A stretch of DNA of 64,000 nucleotides from Alphaproteobacteria bacterium (GTDB taxonomy: Bacteria; Pseudomonadota; Alphaproteobacteria; UBA7985), in NCBI GenBank assembly GCA_965658725.1, contig CBFHUI010000004.1:2825-66824 (forward strand), given 5' to 3'. Position numbers and translations under genes: made by a program. The stretch's first letter is position 1; each line of letters starts with the position of its first letter. The notes under the pieces are model-generated. The model did no database searches. It was not told where the DNA came from and saw nothing but the letters and a program-made list of their open reading frames with translations. Of this stretch, positions 4,902 to 16,174 are shown piece by piece.

Positions 4902-7736
4902 CTAGTCGAGGAAGGACCGGATCCTCTGGCAGGCTTCATCAAGGCCAAGGCGATGGATCGGCACCCCGGTGGGAAAGGCGCTTTCCAGGCGGCTGGGCAT
5001 CATGGGGTCGAGCAGGACGAACACGCCCTTGTCCGTTTGCCGCCGGATCAGCCGGCCGAAGGCCTGCCGCAGCTTGGCCCGCGCAAGCATGTCATCCAGC
5101 CCGCGCCCACCAAAAGCGTCGCGACGCGCACGGTGCAGGATATCGGGCCGGGGCCACGGTACGCGCTCAAAGGCAAGCAGGCGCAGGCTGTTCCCCGGCA
5201 CATCCACGCCGTCCCGCACGGCATCCGTCCCGAGCAAACAGGCGTTGGTGTCATCGCGGAAGATGTCCACCAGCGTCCCCGTGTCCATGGCGTCCACGTG
5301 TTGCGCGAACAGCGGCAGTCCGTTTTCTTCCAGCGGCGTTCGAATGCGATCGTAGACCGCGCGCAGGCGTCGGATGGCGGTAAACAGCCCGATGCCGCCC
5401 CCACCCGAGGCCATGAAAAGGCTTTCGAATGCAGCCGCGAGGGCGCCGGGCTGGTTCTTGGGCACATCGCCAACGATCAGTACTTCGGCCTGATTGGCGT
5501 AGTCATAGGGGCTTTCCACGCGCGCGCGAAAAGCGCCACCGCGCAAGTGTTGCGCCCCGGTTCGCTCTTCTGCCACGCGCCACGCATTTTCGGTGTCAGC
5601 GACCGGGTCCGTGAGGGTGGCAGAAGTGACGACAAAGCCCTGCACCTGGCTGGCCATGGTTTGGCTAAAGGGCTTCATCGGGTCGATGAAGTGGCGGTAG
5701 TAGCCCAGATCGCGGTCCTTGCCGTCCACACGCTCTACAGAGAACCAATCCACGAAATCAGGCGGTGGATCGCTTTCTAGGTCGCGCAGCATGGCGGACC
5801 ACGCGGTCAGCGGGTCCACGGCGCGGCGTTCGAGCGAACGCACCATGGCTTCGGCGCGGCGCCGGGCGTCGGCTTGGGACTTCCACTGGACCGGCTGGTC
5901 CTCGTCGCTGCCTTCGTTCTCTGTGCTGGCCTCAGCATCTTCATTGTCTTTACCCGTAGGCTGTTCGAGAACGTCAATCAGGCAGGCGCGCAAGTCCTGC
6001 ACGGGCTTGAGCAAGCGCCCCAGCGCCTCTTCAAACTCGCGCGCGGCGGCCAGCAAGCCAGTAACCGGCGGTCGCGGGGTGCATTCGATCGAGAACGGGT
6101 CGCCGGGCTTGTCGGCGCGGGCATAGACCTGCTCCCCAACAAAGCTCAGGAAGTACTCGCCCGCCCCGTCCGGCGTGCCGTCGCGCAAGCGCTGGTACCA
6201 GCCCGGGCCGGGTAGGGTGTAGGCCCCCTGTTCAACTTCCTTGAGCAGATCCGGCAGACGCGGGTCGAGGGTGACGACCTCTTCCATCCGAACCCGCAGG
6301 CCACGTCCTCGCCCGCGCTTGTCGCTTTCCGGGCCGAGCAGCCAGCGGCGCAGCTCAGCGGTTTCCAGCCCGGAGAGACCGGCGCTGAAAAAGCTGTCGG
6401 AGGCGTCGAAGAGGTGATGGCCTTCGTCGAAAACCACGTGCTCGGACAGATCGCTTTCCGGGCCCTGTCCAGCTTGATTGAGCACGAGCGCATGGTTGGC
6501 GATTACCAGTCGGGCATGGCGGGCGTTACGGATGTTCTTCTCGATCCCGCATTTGCTGTAGTGCGGGCAACCGGAATAGAGGCACTCGCCGCGCTGGTCG
6601 GTCAGGTCGGTGGTGACTTTGGTGCCGAACAGGTCGATCAACCACGCTGGAAAGTCGCCCCCAACCATATCGCCGCTGCGGCTGCGCTCAGCCCAACGCG
6701 CGGTAATGACCAGCCCGATGCGATCCCGATCGGTGAGGCCGCCGGCTTGTCCCGCTTCTTGCAGATTCAGCAGGCAGAGATAGTTCTCCCGCCCTTTGCG
6801 AACCACCACGTTCCGGTTTTTCGTGCCCGGCTCTTCGAACAGGCGGTCCATTTCCTGATCGATTTGACGCTGTAGGGCGCGGGTGTAGGTCGAGACCCAG
6901 ACAGAGCCTTTGTTCTTACCTGCCCACACGGTCGCAGGCGCGAGATAGCCCAGCGTTTTCCCCACGCCTGTTCCGGCCTCGGCGAGCACCATGTGCGGGG
7001 AAGCGCGTTCTTCGCGGGGATGAAAGGCCTGACTGACAGCAGAGGCATAGTCGGCCTGCGAGGGACGTTCTTCGACATCGCCTCGGCCCAGCCCGAGCAG
7101 CGTGGAAAGTTGCTTGCGCGCTTCAGCCTCGGTGACGGGGTCCGTGCCGGGGCGGCCTTGGGCGGCCTCGTCTTCCCACGTGTCCATCCGTTCCCACACT
7201 CGCAGGGCGCGGGATTGGTCCGCGCCGGGATCGAGCGCGGCGTCTCCGGCCGTGGCGGCGAGGCCGCGTACGATGGGTTGCGCCCAGGGCCAGTGCGCCC
7301 GCGCAGCGATCCACACGCCTGAAAGCATCACACGATCCGTTGCACCAAAGCCGCTGAGCTCGGCGAGAAGCGCGCGGGCGATGGCGCGGAGGTTGGCGGC
7401 AAGATCGTCGGGACCGGCGGCGTCTTCGGGTTCTTCCAGCCCCACCACGCGGGACAGTGACTTGGCCGTTGGCGTAACCGTGCGCGAGGGGCGTACAAAG
7501 GCGAAGAGTTCAAGCACATCCAGCGAGCGAAAGCGCGCCATTCCCCCGCGCCGTGCCAGCGCTGGCATGTGACAGACCAGTGGCGCGTCCTTGGTCAGCG
7601 CTTGAGACAGCGCTTGGGCAGAAAGTTGTTTTGCTGCCTGTCCGGGCGCACACCACCACAATCCACCGCCGTGCCACACCAGCACCGGCGCTGTATCAAC
7701 GGACAGCCCCTCAGAACGATCGAACAAATCAAGCAT
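4902..7736 (-). CDS. dinG: DinG-family ATP-dependent DNA helicase (Fe-S)
   Basis: EAGTGVGKT Walker A, DEGHHL, four Cys (YLCL, GECLYSGCPHYSKC), GVDVPG, QAFGRLIR; start placed at ATG 7736 (MLDLFDRS). Confidence 0.88.
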   Translation of the reverse strand: MLDLFDRSEGLSVDTAPVLVWHGGGLWWCAPGQAAKQLSAQALSQALTKDAPLVCHMPALARRGGMARFRSLDVLELFAFVRPSRTVTPTAKSLSRVVGLEEPEDAAGPDDLAANLRAIARALLAELSGFGATDRVMLSGVWIAARAHWPWAQPIVRGLAATAGDAALDPGADQSRALRVWERMDTWEDEAAQGRPGTDPVTEAEARKQLSTLLGLGRGDVEERPSQADYASAVSQAFHPREERASPHMVLAEAGTGVGKTLGYLAPATVWAGKNKGSVWVSTYTRALQRQIDQEMDRLFEEPGTKNRNVVVRKGRENYLCLLNLQEAGQAGGLTDRDRIGLVITARWAERSRSGDMVGGDFPAWLIDLFGTKVTTDLTDQRGECLYSGCPHYSKCGIEKNIRNARHARLVIANHALVLNQAGQGPESDLSEHVVFDEGHHLFDASDSFFSAGLSGLETAELRRWLLGPESDKRGRGRGLRVRMEEVVTLDPRLPDLLKEVEQGAYTLPGPGWYQRLRDGTPDGAGEYFLSFVGEQVYARADKPGDPFSIECTPRPPVTGLLAAAREFEEALGRLLKPVQDLRACLIDVLEQPTGKDNEDAEASTENEGSDEDQPVQWKSQADARRRAEAMVRSLERRAVDPLTAWSAMLRDLESDPPPDFVDWFSVERVDGKDRDLGYYRHFIDPMKPFSQTMASQVQGFVVTSATLTDPVADTENAWRVAEERTGAQHLRGGAFRARVESPYDYANQAEVLIVGDVPKNQPGALAAAFESLFMASGGGGIGLFTAIRRLRAVYDRIRTPLEENGLPLFAQHVDAMDTGTLVDIFRDDTNACLLGTDAVRDGVDVPGNSLRLLAFERVPWPRPDILHRARRDAFGGRGLDDMLARAKLRQAFGRLIRRQTDKGVFVLLDPMMPSRLESAFPTGVPIHRLGLDEACQRIRSFLD

Positions 7737-7871
7737 GAGGGTGGTTTTATGCGCAGTTGAGGCGCTTGGACAGTCGTAGTTTGAGCCGCCATGCAGGTTT
7801 GTGGCGTTTTGTCCGAGGCATAAAGCCCGTAGTGTCTCTCCGACTTTCAAACCCTGAGGACAAGAGATCCC

Positions 7872-9464
7872 ATGACTGAGTATTCCGATCTTGCTGACGC
7901 CGCGCGTGCCTGGCCGTTTGAGGAAGCGAAGAAGCTCAAAAAACGGCTGGGTGGCAAGGTGCCGGACAAGGGATATGTGCTGTTTGAAAGCGGCTATGGC
8001 CCCTCGGGTCTGCCGCACTTGGGCACCTTTGGCGAAGTTGCGCGCACGACCATGGTGAAGCGCGCGTTCGAAGCGCTGTGCCCGGACATCCCAACCAAGC
8101 TGGTGGCGTTCTCTGACGACATGGACGGCTTCCGCAAGGTGCCGACGAATGTGCCGAATCAGGAGTTGCTCGCCACCGCGCTGAACAAGCCCCTGACCCA
8201 AGTGCCTGATCCATTTGGCGAAGAAAGCTCATTTGCAGCGCAGAACAACCGGCGCCTGCGCGCCTTCCTCGACAGCTTTGGCTTTGAGTATGAGTTCAAG
8301 TCCTCGACAGAGACCTACCAGTCCGGCGCGTTTGATGCCGCGCTGATCCGCATGGCGGAGGCTTATGAGGCCGTTATGGGAATCATGCTGCCGACCTTGG
8401 GGGCCGAGCGTAAGGCGACCTATTCGCCCTTCCTGCCGATCTCCCCGGTCAGCGGTAAGGTTCTGCAGGTGCCGATGCTCAACGTCGACGCCAAGGCCGG
8501 GACCGTGACTTACGTTGAGCCGGAAACGGGCGAAGAAATCACCCAGCCGGTGACGGGTGGGTCGTGCAAAGTGCAGTGGAAGCCGGATTGGGCGCTTCGC
8601 TGGTACGCCTTGCAGGTCGACTATGAGATGTACGGCAAAGACCTGATCGACAGCGCGAAGATTGCGGCGCGGATCACCAAGGCGCTCGGCGGCCCCGCGC
8701 CAGAGGGCTTTTCCTACGAGCTGTTCTTGGACGAGCAAGGCCAGAAAATCTCCAAGTCCAAAGGCAACGGCCTGTCGATCGAAGAATGGTTGGAGTACGG
8801 CCCTGCCGAGTCCCTCTCGCTCTACATGTTCCAGCGTCCACGCACGGCCAAGAAATTGCACTTCGACGTCATACCCAAGGCGGTCGATGACTATGTGACC
8901 TTTGTCGAGAAATTCCCCGGAGAGGCCGGCGAAAAGCAGCTGGAAAACCCCGCCTGGCATATCCACGGCGGCGATCAGGTGCCGGCGAGCGAAGACGGTG
9001 TGTCCTTTGGCATGTTGCTCAACCTCGCGTCGGTTGTGAATGCGTCCGAGGCAAGCGTGCTCTGGGCCTTCATCCAGCGCTATCGCCCGCAGGCCAGCCC
9101 GGAGACGACCCCGTTTCTGGCCAAGCTGGTCGATCATGCTGTGCGCTACTACCGCGACCGTGTCGCCCCGACCAAGGCCTACCGCGCGCCGACGGAAGCG
9201 GAAGTTGCGGCCTTTACCAGTCTGCACGATGCACTGGGTGCCTTTGAGGGACAGGATGCAACGGCAGAAGATCTGCAAACGGCGGTGTTCACCGTGGGCA
9301 AGGGTGCTGAGTACGAGAATCTGCGCGAGTGGTTCCAAGCGCTCTATCAGGTTCTGCTCGGACAGGATCAGGGGCCGCGCTTTGGCTCCTTTATCGCGCT
9401 CTACGGCGTAGCTGAGACCCGTGCTCTGCTGATGCATGGGATCAAGGGCGAGCTGGCGGCATGA
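7872..9464 (+). CDS. lysS: Class I lysyl-tRNA synthetase
   Basis: [17 protein letters not shown] (HIGH-like), KISKSKGN (KMSKS-like), QGPRFGSF. Confidence 0.95.
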
Positions 9465-9805
9465 ACCTGATCTACCACATGGCGCACCGGGGAGACTGGG
9501 ATGCGGCGCAGGCAAGCGGGGCCTATGCTGGCTCAGCCGACGACCTGCGCGACGGGTTCATCCACTTTTCGACCGGCGCGCTGATCCCTGAATCCGCAGC
9601 CAAGCACCGGGCGGGGCAGGCAGATTTGCTGCTCATCTGTTGCGAGGCCGAGGCCTTGGGTGACGCGCTCAAGTGGGAGCGCTCGCGCAACGGCATCGAC
9701 TTCCCGCACCTTTACCGCGCGCTCGACCCGGCGGAGGCGCTGTGGTCGGTTCCGCTGCCGCTGGACGCGGCAGGCGTGCATGTTTTTCCCAAGGATATGG
9801 CCTGA
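9461..9805 (+). CDS. DUF952 domain protein
   Basis: IYHM...W..A...[15 protein letters not shown]...FPHLYRAL. Confidence 0.88.
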
Positions 9806-9808
9806 TCC

Positions 9809-11659
9809 ATGTGGTCCCTCACGCCTGCGCTGCTGCGCGCCCTAGACCCTGAAACCGCGCACCACGTGACTTTGCGCGGGTTGCGGCTGGGGCTGCACCC
9901 TCGTTTTCGCCAGCGTAAAGCGGCGCCCGCAGGTCAGCTGTTTGGCAAAGACCTGCCCAACCGCCTGGGCCTTGCAGCCGGGTTCGACAAGGACGCTGAG
10001 GCCGTCGCGGCACTGGCGGCGCTGGGCTTTGCGGCGGTTGAGGTTGGCTCGGTTACCCCGCAGCCCCAACCGGGAAACCCGCGCCCCCGCGTGTTCCGCC
10101 TGCCCGCCGACCGCGCTGTCATCAATCGTTACGGTTTTAACTCTGGCGGCCACGATCTGGTGCGCCGCAACCTCGACCGTCTTCGCCCGGAGCAGCGCCC
10201 GCCGCTGTTGGGCGTCAATCTGGGGGCCAACAAGACCTCCGAGAATGTTCCAGCGGACTTCGCGCTGGGTGTCAGCCGGTTTGCCGACATTGCTGATTAT
10301 CTGGTCATCAACGTATCCAGTCCAAACACGCCGGGCCTGCGGGATCACCAGACCATCGACGCGCTGGCTCGCATCCTCGACCTCGCCCTCGATGCCCGCG
10401 CACAGACCGCACCGACGCCGCTGATGCTCAAGATTGCCCCTGATCTAGCCGATGAAGACGTCGCCGCCATCGTTGATCTTGCGCTCGACCGGGGGATCGA
10501 GGGCCTGATCGCGACCAACACCACCATTGCCCGGCCCGACGGCCTGAAGGGCGCAGCGCAGACCCAAGCGGGCGGGCTATCCGGTCAGCCGCTGTTCGAG
10601 CGTGCGACCGAAGTGCTGACATCCATCCGGGAGCAGGCTGACGACCGCCTCGTCGTCTTTGGCACTGGCGGTGTTTCGACCCCGGAGCAGGCGCAGGAAA
10701 AGGTCCGCCGGGGCGCTGATCTGGTCCAGCTCTACACGGGCCTGATTTATGGCGGTCCGGCACTGGTCCGGCCGCTCATGCAGGCGGTTTCGCTGCCGAC
10801 GAAGACCCAGCGGGTGAGCGGGCTCAATCAGCTGATCGACGAGCGTCGCTATCGCGGGCTGATCGTCGATCTGTGGGGGGTCATGCACAACGGTAAGGCG
10901 CTCTTCCCCGAAGCGGTCGAGGCGTTGCGCCGCGCCCGGCAGCGGGGGTTGCAGGTGCAGTTCCTCTCCAACGCACCGCGCCGCGCGCACTCCATCGCTG
11001 GCCTGTTGGAGAAAATGGGCCTCCGGGCCGAGAGCTACGACGGCATTGTCTCCAGCGGTGAAGAAAGCTGGCAGGCGCTGCGCGACCGAACGGCGCTGTT
11101 CTATGAAGAACTTGGCCCGCGCTGCTTCCATTTGGGAGCGGGTGAGAAAGACGCAAACATGCGCGAAGGGCTGGATTTTGCCTTTCAGGATCAGCTCGAC
11201 GGCGCAGACTGGATCCTCAACACCGGCCCAGCCGCCAGCACGGATATCGCCGAGTGGCTGCCGCTGCTGCGGAAGGCGCTGGCGCTGGACCTTCCCATGG
11301 TGTGCGCCAACCCGGACCGCGTGGTCATGCGAGGCGAGTCCAAGGAGCTGTGCGCGGGCGCGCTCGCTGAGTGGTACGAGGCCGAGGGCGGGGTCGTCAG
11401 CTGGCACGGCAAGCCCTATCCATCGGTTTACGCCACCGCCCGCCGCGCCATGAACCTCCCGCGCCACGAAGTCCTTGCCATTGGCGACAGCTTCACCACC
11501 GACGTTGCGGGGGCGCAGACGGCGGGGATCGACGTCCTGCTGGTCAACACCGGCATCCACCAAAGCGACCTCGATGGCGATCTGATGGGCGGCGTTGACC
11601 GCCTCTCTGTCGAAAAAGGCCTGCGCCCGACGTTTGCGGCTGACAGGTTGCAGTTCTAA
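9809..11659 (+). CDS. pyrD: Fusion: quinone-dependent dihydroorotate dehydrogenase + HAD-IIA hydrolase (TIGR01459-like)
   Basis: Residues 1-~330: LAAGFDK, NRYGFNS, VINVSSPNTPGLR, KIAPDL, GGLSG, LYTGLIYGGP. Residues ~336-616: DLWGVMHNG, FLSNAPR, CANPD, HGKP, IGDSFTTDVAGA. No stop codon between the parts. Confidence 0.9.
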   Translation: MWSLTPALLRALDPETAHHVTLRGLRLGLHPRFRQRKAAPAGQLFGKDLPNRLGLAAGFDKDAEAVAALAALGFAAVEVGSVTPQPQPGNPRPRVFRLPADRAVINRYGFNSGGHDLVRRNLDRLRPEQRPPLLGVNLGANKTSENVPADFALGVSRFADIADYLVINVSSPNTPGLRDHQTIDALARILDLALDARAQTAPTPLMLKIAPDLADEDVAAIVDLALDRGIEGLIATNTTIARPDGLKGAAQTQAGGLSGQPLFERATEVLTSIREQADDRLVVFGTGGVSTPEQAQEKVRRGADLVQLYTGLIYGGPALVRPLMQAVSLPTKTQRVSGLNQLIDERRYRGLIVDLWGVMHNGKALFPEAVEALRRARQRGLQVQFLSNAPRRAHSIAGLLEKMGLRAESYDGIVSSGEESWQALRDRTALFYEELGPRCFHLGAGEKDANMREGLDFAFQDQLDGADWILNTGPAASTDIAEWLPLLRKALALDLPMVCANPDRVVMRGESKELCAGALAEWYEAEGGVVSWHGKPYPSVYATARRAMNLPRHEVLAIGDSFTTDVAGAQTAGIDVLLVNTGIHQSDLDGDLMGGVDRLSVEKGLRPTFAADRLQF

Positions 11660-11828
11660 TTTGAATTATCTGAGATTACGCGAAAAAAGACGTTGAAGCC
11701 TTTGTAAAACTGCGTTATTTCTTCTGGCATTATGCGGCAGTGTCGATTCATTTTTACGACACGCCTTCGATTTTTCAGCCCCGTGTTTGAGTCTCGGGGC
11801 GCGCATTTGATGTTCAGGAGCAGTGCCC

Positions 11829-14570
11829 ATGACGGCGCAGTTAAAGCCCGCTTCACGCTTTGAATCCTACACACCGACGCTTGTCTTCGCCCTGATCATG
11901 ACGGGTGCCTGGCTGGTCGCGGGTTGGTCTTTGTTTGGCTACTACGGCGGCCCGACCGCCTTTGCCAGCCTGAGTCCAGCGGAAGTAGGGCTGGTGATTT
12001 GCGGGGGCTTGCTGCCGCTTATGGCGATCTGGATCCTGTGCGGCATGCTGGTTGTAGGCACGCGCTTGCGCAACTCGATGATGCAGGAGCTTAGCACCCT
12101 GCGCACCGTGAACATCATGCCCGAGGAAACCCAGGCTCACATCAAGTCGATCACCCGCGCCTTTGAAGACCGCGTTGGGCACTTGCAGGGCGTGACCAGC
12201 GGTATTCTGACCTCGCTGGAGTCCGCGACAGGCCAGTTTGAGCGGCAGTCGGATATGCTGGAGGCGCTGTCCTACCGCGTTGATGAGCAGTCGAACACGA
12301 TTTCGACCGCACTGAGCATTCAAGGCAATCAGCTGACCGGGGCCGAAGGACGGATTGACCGCATGGTCAACCGCATGAAGCACGCCATGGAAGACGTCCG
12401 CGATGCGGGCGAGACCTTCCGCGAGAACCTCTCCAAGCCGATCGCTGAAGTCCAAGACACGCTCGCCGACGCGACCGCTTCGATCCATACGCAGATCGAC
12501 GACATCTGGTCCCGGCTGGAGCTGCTCGACGCCGCGCAGGCCGAGACCGAAGAAGCCACGGCCCGGACACGCGCCGCGCTGGAAGCGGAGTCCGAGAACC
12601 TGCGCCACACCGCTGACGAGGCCCTCGCGAATGTAGAGAGCATGTCGCTCAAGCTGACCGGGCAGATTGATTTGCTCAAGACTGTGTCTGACGATGCCAA
12701 CGACGTGGCGGATCAGATGCAGGGCCGGTTGGAAGAGCAGTCCAAGGCGCTGCGGCAGGCGGGCAATGACCTTTCCACCCACGCCAACGAACTGCATCAG
12801 GCGATTCAGGATCAGGCGGCGCACCTCACGCATTTGCAGGAGTCCGTTGATACATACGGCGGCGCGATCTCTGAAGAGTTCGAAAAGAAGATCGAGAAGC
12901 TCATGAATTCGGCACGCGAGGCGGCGGCTATTGTCGGTGAGGAAACAGCACTTGCCACCCGCCGCGCGATCGACGAGCTGTCGGAGAACGGCGACAAGCT
13001 CACCGGCAACATCAGCTTCGTCTCCGAGCGGGTTGAGCAGCTGACCGAAGCGCTCGAAACCGGCGCGGCGACGCTCAAGGAAACCGCGCTCTCGGCCAAG
13101 GCGGCGATGCAGGCCGGGGCTGACGAAGCGGCGAAGACCATGACGGACTCGACCAAGGGCGCAGAGGTTCGCTTTGTCGAGCTCGGCGACGCTTGGGCCG
13201 ATGCGCTGGAGGAGCAATCTTCGCGGCTCGAAAGCTTGCAGGAGATGGCAACCGCGGCTGAAGACAGCACCTTTGCCCGCGCTGAAGAGGCTGTTGTGCA
13301 CCTCGCCGAGCGCCTCGACCATGCGCTGCAGGAACGGTTTGAGGATGAACACGGCGCCTTTAACACCGCGCAACGGCAGATTGATGCTGCGGCACAGCGG
13401 ACCGTGAACAACTACCACCGCTTGGTCGGCAGCTTTGTCGATGATCTGACCAAGAAGGCCGGGGCTGAGATGGAATGTCTCATGACCTGGGGGCAGGAAA
13501 TTCCGCGCGCCGCCGAGCACCTGCGCGAAACAGCGGCTGAGGTTGTTCACTTGATGGACGAGAAGACCAAGGCTCTTCTTACCCGCACCGATGAAGTGCG
13601 CCACGCGACCACGGATGCACTGTCTGCAACGCAAAGCCTGTTCGATGGGATCTCGCAGGGGCCGGAGCGCCTGACGGAGACGGTGACGGCGCTGCGCGAT
13701 GCGTCGTCTTCGGCGGTCGAAGATCTACGCCTGCAAACCGAGACGCTGAACTCCTTGCTGGTGGACAGTCGCAATCGGTTGGTCCGGTTGACTGAGAAGT
13801 TCCATCAGGGCGTCAACGACGACGCGGTTGACTCTCGTCTCATGCGTTTGGCCGAGGCGATCGAAGCGGGTGAAGGCGCGCTGCGTCAGGCGGCGTCTGC
13901 GTTTGACGATACGACCCATCAGGCGGCTGAGTCCGCGCATTCGGCGGCAGGCCGTTTGCTCGAAACCTCTCGCCTTGTCGGCGCGCAAGTTGAGATGCTG
14001 CGGGATATGACCACCAACACGGAAAGCGCCAACAACCTGCGGCGTGTGACCGATCAGGCTGACGAGCTGCGGGTGATCCTTGAACAAATCGGGGTCGCGG
14101 CGGAGAACCACCAGCTGACGCTGGTCCGCGTGACGGAGGAGGCTAAGAGCCAGTCGGAAAAGCTGCTCCAGACGGTGAAGCACTCCGAGCGAGATGCCTT
14201 CCTCAACGAAGCGTCATCCATGGTTGAGGCTCTGCACCAGGCGGCGATTGACGTTGACACCATCCTCGACGGTGATCTGCCGGGCGATGTGGTGATGGCG
14301 ATCAATGCGGGTGACCGAGGCGTGTCTGTCCGCCGCCTGCTCAGCCGCTACACTCCTGCAGGCGCTGCGGCCATGGCGGACCTTTATGCCCGCGACCGGG
14401 CCTTTACGGCACAGGTGGACCGCTACTTGGAAACCTTCGACAGCCTGCTCGAACAGGCCAACCGCGTGGACCGGTCCAAGCTGCTGCACACGACCTTCCT
14501 GACCGCAGACATTGGCAAGCTTTACGTCTTCCTTGCACGGTCGATCGGGGTGATGCAGGCCGCCGAGTAG
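11829..14570 (+). CDS. Membrane-anchored long helical protein, TipN/GPR(RgsE)-like polar scaffold
   Basis: Two N-terminal TM helices, about 750 aa A/E/L/T/Q-rich helical region, C-terminal LYARDRAFTAQVDRYLETFDSLL...FLTADIGKLYVFLARSIG resembling the conserved end of alphaproteobacterial polar landmark proteins. Confidence 0.65.
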   Translation: MTAQLKPASRFESYTPTLVFALIMTGAWLVAGWSLFGYYGGPTAFASLSPAEVGLVICGGLLPLMAIWILCGMLVVGTRLRNSMMQELSTLRTVNIMPEETQAHIKSITRAFEDRVGHLQGVTSGILTSLESATGQFERQSDMLEALSYRVDEQSNTISTALSIQGNQLTGAEGRIDRMVNRMKHAMEDVRDAGETFRENLSKPIAEVQDTLADATASIHTQIDDIWSRLELLDAAQAETEEATARTRAALEAESENLRHTADEALANVESMSLKLTGQIDLLKTVSDDANDVADQMQGRLEEQSKALRQAGNDLSTHANELHQAIQDQAAHLTHLQESVDTYGGAISEEFEKKIEKLMNSAREAAAIVGEETALATRRAIDELSENGDKLTGNISFVSERVEQLTEALETGAATLKETALSAKAAMQAGADEAAKTMTDSTKGAEVRFVELGDAWADALEEQSSRLESLQEMATAAEDSTFARAEEAVVHLAERLDHALQERFEDEHGAFNTAQRQIDAAAQRTVNNYHRLVGSFVDDLTKKAGAEMECLMTWGQEIPRAAEHLRETAAEVVHLMDEKTKALLTRTDEVRHATTDALSATQSLFDGISQGPERLTETVTALRDASSSAVEDLRLQTETLNSLLVDSRNRLVRLTEKFHQGVNDDAVDSRLMRLAEAIEAGEGALRQAASAFDDTTHQAAESAHSAAGRLLETSRLVGAQVEMLRDMTTNTESANNLRRVTDQADELRVILEQIGVAAENHQLTLVRVTEEAKSQSEKLLQTVKHSERDAFLNEASSMVEALHQAAIDVDTILDGDLPGDVVMAINAGDRGVSVRRLLSRYTPAGAAAMADLYARDRAFTAQVDRYLETFDSLLEQANRVDRSKLLHTTFLTADIGKLYVFLARSIGVMQAAE

Positions 14571-14596
14571 GCGCTCGCCCGGATAGGACGATCAAG

Positions 14597-14636
14597 AAAA
14601 GCGCCGGCTGCTCAGGTGAAACTGAGCGGCCGGCGC
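14597..14636. terminator. Intrinsic terminator between convergent genes
   Basis: AAAA-GCGCCGGCTGCTCAG-GTGAAA-CTGAGCGGCCGGCGC, 15-bp stem; T-tract on the minus strand. Confidence 0.85.
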
Positions 14637-14667
14637 GTGTCGTTCTGGGGCGGTTGAGGCGGGGCGT

Positions 14668-15237
14668 CTACTGGCCGCGCGACACAGCTTGCATGATGTA
14701 ACTGGCGGAACCCGGGCGGGCATAGACTTCGGGGAAGCCTTCCGCGCTGTACGCAGGCGCGGCGTAGCCCATGGGCCTCGCGCTGGGAACGCCGTAACCG
14801 GGCAGGCCAGAGGTATCGTGCACCACCATGACGTTCGAACCGTAGCCCTGCATCTGATCGGCGGCGGCGACTTGCCCCTGATAGGACAGGATCGACTGCG
14901 CCTGCTCAGCGTAAGTCGCGCTGTCCTGCATGCTGTATCCATGGCCGTGGCCAGAGACGTGGGCCGAGCCGTAACCGGCCGATACCGCAGGCGCGGCGTA
15001 CTGGACGTGGGGCGCGTACGTGGGCTGGGCGGCATAACCGGTCTTGGTATAGGCTTGGTGCGTGTTGGCTGCTGCAACGTGCGCGTTGCCGCCGTATGAG
15101 AAGGTCACAATCGACCCTGCTGGAGCGGGCGCGTAGCCGGTTTTTGAGTAGCTGTAGGATTGGGCTTGGGCAGTTTGTACAGCGAAGACCCCGGCGATCA
15201 GCGCCGCCGGGATGATCAAATATTATAAGGTCCGCAT
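14668..15237 (-). CDS. Secreted Tyr/Ala/Gly-rich low-complexity protein B; in-frame TAA at codon 5 (or alternative TTG start at 15219)
   Basis: ATG CGG ACC TTA TAA TAT TTG ATC ATC CCG = MRTL*YLIIPAALIAGVFAVQTAQA; mature part has YxKTGYA twice and YAAP/YAP repeats. Confidence 0.7.
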
Positions 15238-15323
15238 GAAACTCTGCTTCTTCAAAAGGTCTAAATTGGTCGTCCAAACGGGCGCTCGGATTGGGAGCGA
15301 AGCGCCGCAGTAGCGAGATAAAC

Positions 15324-15339
15324 TGCAATGGTAGGGCCA
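15324..15339 (-). promoter_or_regulatory. sigma54 promoter of protein B gene
   Basis: Minus strand TGGCCCTACCATTGCA: GG-N10-GC with TGGC and TTGCA. Confidence 0.65.
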
Positions 15340-15459
15340 GTCGGGAGGAAGGACTGGCTCTGCGCATAAGGGCGGTTTACTCGGACCAAATCACCAAAAG
15401 AGAGACAATAAAGTGTCTTGCACGCAGAAGGGGCAGAACCGAATTGCGACGGTGGTCGC

Positions 15460-15999
15460 TTACTGAGTCGGAATAATTTGCGGGTAGGACGCAGATTGGG
15501 CCGGCTGAGCATAGGGGTTCGCCGCTGGCTGAGCTTGCGGGTAGCCCTGCGCGAGTGCCTGCGGAGCAACCTGCTGCTGGCCATACTGAATGACCTGCTG
15601 TTGCTGTTGCTGCTGGACCATCGCCCCTTCAACGCCGCTCACCACAGGCAGAACAGCGGCTTCATACACCACCGGCTTTTGCGTGGTGTAAACCTGCTGC
15701 ACTGGCAACTGAACAGGCTGTTGGTAGTAGGTGAAGGTCTGCGGCGCGTAGACCGGAATGCGGGCCTTGCTGTAGACCGCAGGCGCGCCGCCGGTCGCGG
15801 CGTAGCCGGTGCCGTGGGCAGACGGCATGTGATAGCCTTGGCCCTGGTGCGTGAAGTTCACCACGCTGTTGGGGTTGATCGCAACCTGGGGCGCGTAGCC
15901 GGTCTTGTTGTAGACCATGGGAGCCTGAAATTGTGCGGAGGCCACAGTCGGTGCGATCATCAGAGCACCGAGGCCTGCAAGCAGAAGAGAACGTAACAT
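15460..15999 (-). CDS. Secreted Gln/Tyr/Pro-rich low-complexity protein A (paralog of B)
   Basis: AGGAA Shine-Dalgarno; signal peptide MLRSLLLAGLGALMIAPTVASA; YNKTGYAP...SVVNF; Q7 tract; no Cys/Trp/Asp. Confidence 0.8.
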   Translation of the reverse strand: MLRSLLLAGLGALMIAPTVASAQFQAPMVYNKTGYAPQVAINPNSVVNFTHQGQGYHMPSAHGTGYAATGGAPAVYSKARIPVYAPQTFTYYQQPVQLPVQQVYTTQKPVVYEAAVLPVVSGVEGAMVQQQQQQQVIQYGQQQVAPQALAQGYPQAQPAANPYAQPAQSASYPQIIPTQ

Positions 16000-16050
16000 G
16001 GGCAGTTCCTAGAGGAATGAAACGAAAAGCAGAGAGCTTCCCGCCTCCTC

Positions 16051-16066
16051 CGCAAACGCGATACCA
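16051..16066 (-). promoter_or_regulatory. sigma54 promoter of protein A gene
   Basis: Minus strand TGGTATCGCGTTTGCG: GG-N10-GC with TTGC; predicted TSS about 41 nt before the ATG. Confidence 0.6.
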
Positions 16067-16129
16067 AGTCAGTTTTCACTACTTTCGGGCAGATTAGGCC
16101 CCACTTTGCCTCGTTTTTCCCTACGCTCA

Positions 16130-16161
16130 CGCATAAGAAAATGCGGTGACAAAGTTATGCG
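16130..16161. promoter_or_regulatory. Palindromic candidate upstream activator sequence
   Basis: CGCATAA-N18-TTATGCG with nested CGCAT-AAGAAA-ATGCG, about 90-120 nt upstream of the predicted sigma54 TSS. Confidence 0.4.
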
Positions 16162-16174
16162 CCCCCTATCCCCA

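Follow-up and report, generated by a model that had tools for sequence, protein, structure and literature searches.

A dihydroorotate dehydrogenase fused in frame to a TIGR01459 HAD domain in a marine alphaproteobacterial clade, and its relation to a conserved gene pair

When two enzymes that are encoded by neighbouring genes in many bacteria appear as a single polypeptide, is the fusion genuine, how did it come about and what does it say about the function of the less well understood partner? A stretch of 64,000 nucleotides (the window) from an alphaproteobacterium of the UBA7985 lineage (assembly GCA_965658725.1, contig CBFHUI010000004.1, positions 2,825 to 66,824, forward strand) raises this question with one open reading frame (ORF), pyrD::HAD, that is initiated by ATG and runs for 616 codons without an internal stop. 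A preliminary description, made from the letters of the window alone, had read this ORF as an in-frame fusion of a complete class 2 dihydroorotate dehydrogenase (DHODH, PyrD) with a complete TIGR01459-type domain of HAD subfamily IIA. Domain scans confirmed this reading, and the 616-aa ORF and every sequence string quoted in that description were present at the residues assigned to them. The fusion ORF is a real, selectively maintained gene, with both of its halves under purifying selection.

To exclude that a stop codon was lost or a frameshift introduced in one assembly, several independent sources of sequence can be called upon. First, metagenome contigs (Logan) from four independent marine runs covered positions 9700-11760 with substitutions only and zero gaps, and in two of these runs the whole ORF lay inside one single contig. 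Second, words of sequence across the junction were present in more than 20 metagenome runs (marine, estuarine and seawater) from at least 12 studies. Third, full-length fusions made up eight protein clusters in ENA, JGI, NCBI and Logan (73-99% identity, 616-646 aa), one of which was indexed in 30 assembly-collection blocks, and 24 contigs carrying it were examined. Fourth, the frame was kept in five divergent fusion lineages among which synonymous divergence (dS) is saturated (approximately 0.9-4) and the ratio of nonsynonymous to synonymous substitution rates (dN/dS) is 0.03-0.14 for the PyrD part and 0.04-0.25 for the HAD part. The clusters, the dN/dS constraint, the number of studies and the gap-free contigs together rule out an assembly artefact, to which we assign a negligible probability. 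Metatranscriptome contigs also crossed the junction without gaps (10706-11001 and 10737-11037); the fusion gene appears to be expressed, DNA carry-over in the RNA libraries being possible. The junction, where the preliminary description had proposed a check of read coverage, is spanned by both kinds of contig without an indel, and relatives do not all have two genes, as the eight clusters keep the fusion.

Assembly errors do occur in the data of this clade, which is the one observation that could be held in favour of an artefact. On a long-read, pilon-polished contig from a relative within the fusion clade (L019, 1-16972), nearly all genes are fragmented, with FtsK in three pieces, lysS in three and pyrD::HAD in four high-scoring segment pairs. 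Because every gene on L019 is broken, it is the contig itself that is faulty. The database protein P0124 (323 aa), which looks like a stand-alone HAD, is a fragment encoded on L019 and not an unfused relative.

The PyrD part is, by sequence, an ordinary class 2 DHODH that uses quinone and flavin mononucleotide (FMN). Pfam DHO_dh spans residues 43-325 (E 1.5e-73), the NCBIfam equivalog model for quinone-dependent DHODH (NF003645) scored 399 bits over residues 4-346 (cut-off 366), and NF003652 (360.1 bits, cut-off 267) and TIGR01036 (341.7 bits, cut-off 200) were passed as well. Its best matches in the PDB were the rat and human mitochondrial DHODHs (E ~1e-86), and E. coli PyrD (1F76) matched with E 2.9e-66. 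The catalytic loop is that of rat DHODH and has a serine, not a cysteine, at the position of the catalytic base; by homology we take this residue, Ser171, to be the class 2 base. The motifs GFDK, NRxGFN, KIAPD, NTT, GGLSG and GxGG are invariant in the alignment of this part (A1), indicating that the residues that bind FMN and orotate are conserved. The alignment with rat and human DHODH begins at residue 4 and thus includes the N-terminal quinone/membrane helices, and an AlphaFold2 (AF2) model has helices at residues 2-11 and 14-26, a two-helix N-terminal extension typical of the membrane- and quinone-binding domain. Foldseek returned template modelling scores (target) of 0.83-0.88 to DHODH structures, with 0.88 to 1F76; DHODH structures were the only ones among the 50 matches listed for the full-length model against the PDB, which gave no information on the HAD part.

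The HAD part is matched by Pfam Hydrolase_6 (residues 352-446) and Hydrolase_like (534-587), scores 189.6 bits with TIGR01459 (cut-off 103.75, residues 346-580) and marginally passes the subfamily IIA model TIGR01460 (103.9 bits, cut-off 100.15). It has the TIGR01459 family signature D[LV]WGVxH[ND]G together with CANPD, and in the AF2 model S387 and K535 are separated by an alpha/beta segment of approximately 145 residues, where a C2 cap is expected. Stand-alone relatives of approximately 290 aa are approximately 50% identical to it, and the closest are named TIGR01459 by NCBI and JGI. The only solved structure of the family, 6NQ4, is that of a Brucella suis 1330 hydrolase from the Rhizobiales branch, which resembles the fused HAD in family (E 5e-38) and in its DVWGV, ICANPD and GKP motifs; the fused HAD is 34% identical (tblastn) to the near-identical Brucella protein encoded in L100. 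The 6NQ4 protein differs in being stand-alone, in its motif II (TNSPR versus SNAPRR) and in its gene context, upstream of ribF instead of beside pyrD.

The fusion is restricted to a single clade. An exhaustive HMMER search of 1.84 billion 50%-identity representatives, the domain-architecture check that the preliminary description had suggested, found both domains in one chain in only one cluster (P0004, 1144.7 bits), and the next match was a plain PyrD at 318 bits; an independent fusion would score well above single-domain proteins. The clade placement rests on the NCBI labels of two public metagenome-assembled genomes (MAGs) that carry the fusion, Geminicoccus sp. and Rhodospirillaceae bacterium, and fusion contigs come mostly from Tara Oceans and other seawater assemblies. 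Each half is of a known family, and public databases already contain the fusion as predicted proteins that drew no comment, under the names 'hypothetical protein' and 'quinone-dependent dihydroorotate dehydrogenase'.

Outside this clade the two genes are separate, as the preliminary description had assumed for them in general; what it had missed is that they are normally adjacent and often translationally coupled. A HAD-profile scan of species-representative genomes yielded 80 loci from Stellaceae, Acetobacteraceae, Kiloniellales, Rhodovibrionaceae, Azospirillum and others, with no fusion-clade genome among the matches listed (the neighbourhood counts here and below come from 80-locus samples, not from a census, and HAD start codons are predicted). 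In 35 of the 77 evaluable Rhodospirillales-type loci pyrD lies directly upstream of the HAD gene on the same strand, and in 19 further loci it lies 0.25-2.4 kb upstream on the same strand (54/77 in total). A stop codon separates pyrD from HAD in every unfused locus (0/77 fused), and 20 of the 35 adjacent pairs have a pyrD stop codon that shares nucleotides with the predicted HAD start, mostly as ATGA or GTGA, which reads as the classic signature of translational coupling. Unfused pairs such as those of L016, L018, Komagataeibacter xylinus (L033) and Roseomonas (L052) match the fusion in families, gene order and strand, often share with it the DUF952 gene upstream and the coiled-coil gene downstream, and encode proteins that are 44-53% (PyrD) and 41-51% (HAD) identical to the window protein; they differ in the stop codon that always stands between the genes and in a PyrD tail that extends approximately 27 residues past GP.LV.

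The ancestral state, and with it what was lost, can be read from two unfused sister loci. On a 2.28-Mb contig (L016) the order is DUF952, pyrD, a 12-nt spacer, HAD and the coiled-coil gene, and in L018 the ATG of HAD directly follows the TAG stop codon of pyrD. In neighbour-joining analysis of 169 HAD sequences (without branch support) the five fused HADs are monophyletic and nested among pyrD-adjacent HADs, with L018 and then L016 and L022, all pyrD-adjacent, as their nearest relatives. The monophyly of the fused HAD domains points to one fusion event, and we are nearly certain that pyrD::HAD is a real fusion of neighbouring genes that arose once.

Comparison of the termini shows how the genes were joined. 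Unfused PyrD has its approximately 27 residues after GP.LV (for example GPGLVRRINADLSALLKQEGVPNIQHLIGVDLT, followed by the stop codon) where the fusion, with its PyrD end LYTGLIYGGP and its linker string QAVSLPTKTQR, has eight before the linker. The fused protein has GPALVRPLMQAVS followed by LPTKTQRVSGL, the latter corresponding to the HAD N-terminus MSTKVIAGF. The linker thus stands in for approximately 18 C-terminal PyrD residues together with the stop codon, spacer and start codon of HAD that followed them, and the difference between fused and unfused termini shows that these elements were lost by an in-frame deletion. The lost tail is dispensable, because E. coli PyrD stops about where the fused PyrD part stops (alignment up to residue 333 of 336). 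The preliminary description had also proposed that an in-frame GTG at 10814 might yield the HAD domain alone. We rejected a separately initiated HAD, as three of the four other lineages have a different codon at this place (GTC in L014, ACC in both L007 and L010) and no Shine-Dalgarno-like sequence lies upstream of this GTG.

Several loci depart from the adjacent arrangement. In a Kiloniellaceae MAG (GCA_050043265.1, 4862-8894; L001/L004) pyrD and HAD are on the same strand with an ArsC-family gene (opposite strand) and an EAL-domain gene between them, and the Kiloniella loci L026 and L029 have a similar 2-kb spacing; insertions have therefore come between the two genes in some lineages. In another alphaproteobacterial MAG (L038, 4251-7691) DUF952 is followed by an ORF that by eye resembles the EAL-domain gene of L001 and by a tandem pair of TIGR01459 HAD genes (5956-6825 and 6822-7691), and the 6 kb upstream contain no pyrD. 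Around the 23 HAD loci without pyrD the neighbours are heterogeneous and give no lead; they include an RHH_4 protein, an unknown 113-aa protein and ORF clusters that by eye are glycosyltransferase-, ABC-transporter- and methylmalonyl-CoA-mutase-like. An apparent 821-aa HAD fusion in L081 was rejected as read-through of an Arg/Ala-rich ORF upstream of the real start.

On the other hand, the joining could have been neutral: two unrelated functions sharing an operon would have been connected by a deletion in a compact marine genome, and the product would be tolerated while its domains work independently. The locus is tightly packed, with lysS overlapping DUF952 by 4 nt and DUF952 ending 3 nt before pyrD, and only one clade is fused although pyrD and HAD lie near each other in at least 54 unfused lineages. 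The linker differs between fusion lineages in both its residues and its length (P0008 carries an insertion of 13 aa) and is nearly free of constraint (dN/dS 0.1-1.0 over 26 codons at the junction). Conservation of the pair across orders, often with translational coupling, would however be unusual for unrelated functions, and the fusion has been kept, with constraint on each half, while synonymous sites diverged to saturation. Moreover, AF2 models of two orthologues predict a fixed arrangement of the domains. The model of the window protein (built from a checked alignment, A6) has a mean predicted local distance difference test score (pLDDT) of 88.6, a predicted template modelling score (pTM) of 0.86 and a linker pLDDT of 78-91, and that of the 73%-identical P0008 reaches a pTM of 0.87 although its 13-residue linker insertion is disordered (pLDDT below 50). 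Because pTM is so high, domains of approximately 330 and 280 residues would hold a fixed mutual orientation, which implies a predicted PyrD-HAD interface that is independent of the tether. We therefore regard a neutral joining as unlikely, though worth keeping in view; it concerns the event only and is compatible with a functional operon.

What the HAD might do is suggested by the second context in which the family occurs. The genes for the Brucella 6NQ4 protein (P0387) and for a Mesorhizobium homologue lie directly upstream of ribF, with gaps of 87 and 6 nt; ribF encodes the bifunctional riboflavin kinase/flavin adenine dinucleotide (FAD) synthetase (FAD_syn and Flavokinase domains). A Rhizobiales-branch profile scan of metagenomes again gave 80 loci, 77 of them evaluable. 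In 75 of the 77, a same-strand ribF follows the HAD gene at 3-124 bp, in the remaining two the distance is 2.6 kb, again downstream, and no pyrD is near the HAD in these loci. The loci of this branch, those of the two named genera included, are L100 (6001-7929), L101 (6001-7848) and L102-L181. Conversely, no ribF was found in 84 Rhodospirillales-type loci or in the window. In the tree, the pyrD and ribF contexts map to two clean clades of one TIGR01459 family. RibF makes FMN and class 2 DHODH holds FMN as its prosthetic group, so that FMN is the factor common to both partners of the HAD and a flavin-related role is favoured. The preliminary description had named a pyrimidine nucleotide or a flavin as possible substrates: the flavin gains independent support from the ribF linkage, and the pyrimidine is weakened, the sister branch being linked to no pyr gene. 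In the papers searched, the association of this HAD with ribF is absent.

There are precedents for HAD enzymes in flavin metabolism. E. coli YigB and YbjI, B. subtilis YcsE and Arabidopsis AtcpFHy1 are known FMN hydrolases and phosphatases of the riboflavin precursor 5-amino-6-ribitylamino-uracil 5'-phosphate (ArPP), and in plants a HAD FMN hydrolase is fused to riboflavin kinase (PMC7017516, PMC9678776). The plant AtFMN/FHy and the bacterial YigB, YbjI and YcsE resemble the HAD studied here in that a HAD hydrolase is tied, physically or genetically, to an enzyme that makes or uses flavin (PMC9678776, PMC7017516). They differ from it in HAD subfamily, the fusion partner is riboflavin kinase and not DHODH, and in the present case the flavin link consists of gene context only. 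These enzymes also carry a canonical DxD motif I.

This last point matters, as motif I of the TIGR01459 HAD is atypical. D354, S387, K535, D560 and D565 are invariant in fused and stand-alone members (alignments A3 and A5), and so are the D, L, W, G, V, H and G columns around motif I. In HAD phosphatases and mutases the residue two positions after the nucleophile (D+2) is an Asp that serves as general acid/base; the window protein lacks this canonical DxD motif I and has at D+2 a Trp that is invariant across the family, that aligns with the second Asp of YutF DLDGT (3PDW) and that recurs in 6NQ4 (DVWGV). Loss of the D+2 Asp is reportedly tied to non-phosphomonoesterase chemistry, as Burroughs et al. 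in 2006 and Allen and Dunaway-Mariano are said to have argued, and HADs without it include dehalogenases, phosphonatase and P-type ATPases. With this Asp replaced by an invariant Trp, a phosphatase acting on UMP (uridine 5'-monophosphate), OMP (orotidine 5'-monophosphate) or FMN in the manner of NagD is an unsafe label, and the phosphatase activity that the preliminary description had drawn from the analogy with NagD/UmpH is unproven. An invariant His at D+6 and two invariant Arg residues that follow motif II might have a compensating or substrate-binding role.

The same residues bear on whether the HAD is a counterpart of NagD/UmpH that dephosphorylates UMP (or OMP) and so regulates the output of the PyrD pathway. 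UmpH acts in pyrimidine overflow, the gene is in a pyrimidine-biosynthesis context, and NagD belongs to the same subfamily IIA and is a weak sequence match (2C4N, E 6e-7). More generally, NagD/UmpH, YutF, PDXP and Pho13-type p-nitrophenyl phosphatases share the HAD-IIA core (motifs I-IV) and C2 cap with the window protein (E 1e-6 to 1e-11). They differ in their DxD motif I, shown for YutF, where the window protein has DLW, so that the Asp used for phosphomonoester hydrolysis is a Trp here. The similarity to NagD is confined to the C-terminal core, the NagD-type model TIGR01457 gave 47.7 bits against a cut-off of 247.65 (not a member; TIGR01452 was also far below its cut-off), the pair occurs without any other pyr gene alongside, and the sister branch is tied to ribF with no pyr gene. 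We consider a pyrimidine-nucleotide phosphatase highly improbable.

A further alternative, by analogy with LHPP, is a hydrolase that acts on an activated phosphate and not on a flavin; its substrate might be pyrophosphate, a phosphoramidate or an acyl phosphate (carbamoyl phosphate, for instance). Human LHPP (2X4D, DISGV) and HDHD2 (DLSGT) are likewise HAD-IIA proteins without Asp at D+2, with Ser there instead of the Trp of the window protein, and the leaving groups in question need no general acid. LHPP acts on phospholysine, phosphohistidine, pyrophosphate and imidodiphosphate, and shows that HAD-IIA enzymes can work on activated P-N and P-O-P substrates without the canonical acid/base (PMC11277029). 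Pyrophosphate release near both partners (by the RibF adenylyltransferase and by PyrE after PyrD) could fit as well. By contrast, the LHPP/HDHD2 model TIGR01458 gave only 48.5 bits against a cut-off of 175.95 (not a member), so that the resemblance is one of analogy and not of membership; LHPP and HDHD2 have no genomic link to pyrD or ribF, and the neighbours of the HAD are these two genes, not pyrE, carAB or ppa. As an analogy, we consider this quite unlikely.

On the basis of these comparisons we propose the following explanation, in which, taken as a whole, we place somewhat more belief than doubt. The widely conserved, often translationally coupled pair of pyrD and HAD is the source of the fusion, which arose when an in-frame deletion took out everything between the two domains: the dispensable end of PyrD, its stop codon, the spacer and the start codon of HAD. 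The unfused PyrD and HAD would already cooperate, probably as a complex at the membrane-associated DHODH, and the fusion would turn their 1:1 association covalent; functional or physical coupling of the two proteins is moderately probable in our view. The HAD would probably act on a flavin-related phosphoryl compound (FMN, ArPP or a related activated phosphate are the candidates) and would serve the supply, turnover or quality control of the FMN cofactor of DHODH, with an atypical chemistry, since the active site retains its Asp nucleophile, Ser, Lys and Mg2+ ligands but has an invariant Trp in place of the acid/base Asp. For the flavin-related substrate itself the chances appear slightly less than even. 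Still more tentatively, TIGR01459 might be a dedicated, hitherto unnoticed flavin-handling family of alphaproteobacteria with non-canonical HAD chemistry that partners RibF in Rhizobiales and docks on the FMN-dependent membrane DHODH in Rhodospirillales-type lineages, there to load, trim, recycle or proof-read its flavin or a phosphorylated flavin precursor. The marine fusion would then be a covalent DHODH-HAD complex; we put this forward as a doubtful generalization.

Several points weigh against the proposed explanation. The alcohol leaving groups of FMN and ArPP normally require the acid/base Asp, and the Trp at D+2 therefore argues against simple hydrolysis of either. No measured activity for a TIGR01459 member was found in the literature, and 6NQ4 comes from structural genomics without an accompanying paper. 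A substrate cannot be read from gene neighbourhood: what pyrD and ribF have in common could be something other than FMN, such as nearby pyrophosphate release (the FAD synthetase step; PyrE after PyrD). Moreover, 23 of the 77 Rhodospirillales-type loci, all seven of Azospirillum included, have neither pyrD nor ribF beside the HAD. The fusion may be selectively neutral, given that a single clade is fused while hundreds keep the pair adjacent. Its linker is poorly conserved, and the predicted interface is read from pTM alone. The fusion formalises an existing operon and adds little beyond the gene pair.

The family concerned is nonetheless of wider interest. TIGR01459 is widespread in alphaproteobacteria, includes Brucella members and has a solved structure but no known function; in the literature searched it is mentioned only in a Ruegeria re-annotation table, 6NQ4 appears only as a docking control, and nothing was found among the papers listed on a DHODH-HAD fusion, the pyrD-HAD pair or the function of TIGR01459. 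The pyrD-HAD operon, the HAD-ribF operon and the natural fusion together make the family a testable case with substrates centred on flavins, and the Asp-x-Trp catalytic motif is unusual and of interest to HAD enzymology. Should the HAD service the FMN of DHODH, a central enzyme class that is also a drug target would have gained a novel type of partner, one for cofactor maintenance; otherwise, the locus is still a clean example of translationally coupled neighbours becoming one gene.

Table 1. Coordinates of the fusion gene, its parts and motifs, and the neighbouring genes in the window
Feature	Positions	Strand	Basis
pyrD::HAD fusion gene, 616 aa, stop codon included	9809..11659	+	ORF list, domain scans, full-length orthologues P0001-P0008, gap-free metagenome contigs
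PyrD part, residues 1-325, class 2 quinone-dependent dihydroorotate dehydrogenase	9809..10783	+	NF003645, TIGR01036, PDB matches, AF2, Foldseek
DHODH catalytic loop NVSSPNT, residues 168-174	10310..10330	+	Invariant in alignment A1; identical in rat DHODH
Junction/linker, residues 321-335, RPLMQAVSLPTKTQR	10769..10813	+	Comparison with unfused sister loci L016 and L018
In-frame GTG (Val336), earlier proposed as internal start, unsupported	10814..10816	+	Codon comparison, upstream sequence
HAD part, residues 331-616, TIGR01459, subfamily IIA	10799..11656	+	TIGR01459, TIGR01460, 6NQ4 match, stand-alone relatives
HAD motif I DLWGV, residues 354-358; Asp354 nucleophile, Trp356 at D+2	10868..10882	+	Invariant columns, A3 and A5
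HAD motif II region LSNAPRR, residues 386-392; Ser387, two invariant Arg	10964..10984	+	Invariant columns, A3 and A5
CANPD, residues 499-503, cap-domain loop conserved in HAD-IIA	11303..11317	+	Invariant columns; ICANPD in 6NQ4
HAD motif III GKP, residues 534-536, Lys535	11408..11416	+	Invariant columns
HAD motif IV GDSFTTD, residues 559-565; Asp560 and Asp565, Mg2+ ligands by homology	11483..11503	+	Invariant columns
Class I lysyl-tRNA synthetase gene (lysS)	7872..9464	+	Pfam tRNA-synt_1f E 8.5e-127; 4-nt overlap with DUF952 start
DUF952 gene	9461..9805	+	Pfam PF06108 E 5.4e-24; ends 3 nt before fusion gene
Gene for 915-aa predicted coiled-coil protein	11823..14570	+	Weak Apolipoprotein-type matches only

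The fusion gene belongs to a tight same-strand cluster (lysS-DUF952-pyrD::HAD, with lysS first) whose order is kept in all fusion loci, the wider order being helicase (-), lysS, DUF952, pyrD::HAD, coiled-coil gene, gpsA (-), ABC transporter, L28, queG (-) and tgt (-). DUF952, which two papers count among the families with the ADP-ribosyltransferase fold, precedes pyrD in fusion loci and also in many of the unfused ones. The coiled-coil gene is directly 3' of HAD in fusion loci and in the unfused L016, L022, L026, L029 and L031, and may be part of the same conserved cluster.

No Rfam family reached its gathering score in the 64-kb window (no tRNA, rRNA or riboswitch, the FMN riboswitch included), and a promoter/terminator scan of 7400-12200 gave nothing usefully above shuffle expectation. 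Between the coiled-coil gene and gpsA lie 1.6 kb (14571-16174) without an ORF of at least 200 aa; in relatives this interval holds two small ORFs (L012), approximately 0.5 kb (L014) or almost nothing (L007 and L010). Upstream, a DinG-like helicase ORF (4902-8201, minus strand; Helicase_C_2 in relatives) would encode 1099 aa from a TTG and overlap the start of lysS by approximately 330 nt; as its orthologues are 945-980 aa long, the true helicase start is probably further downstream.

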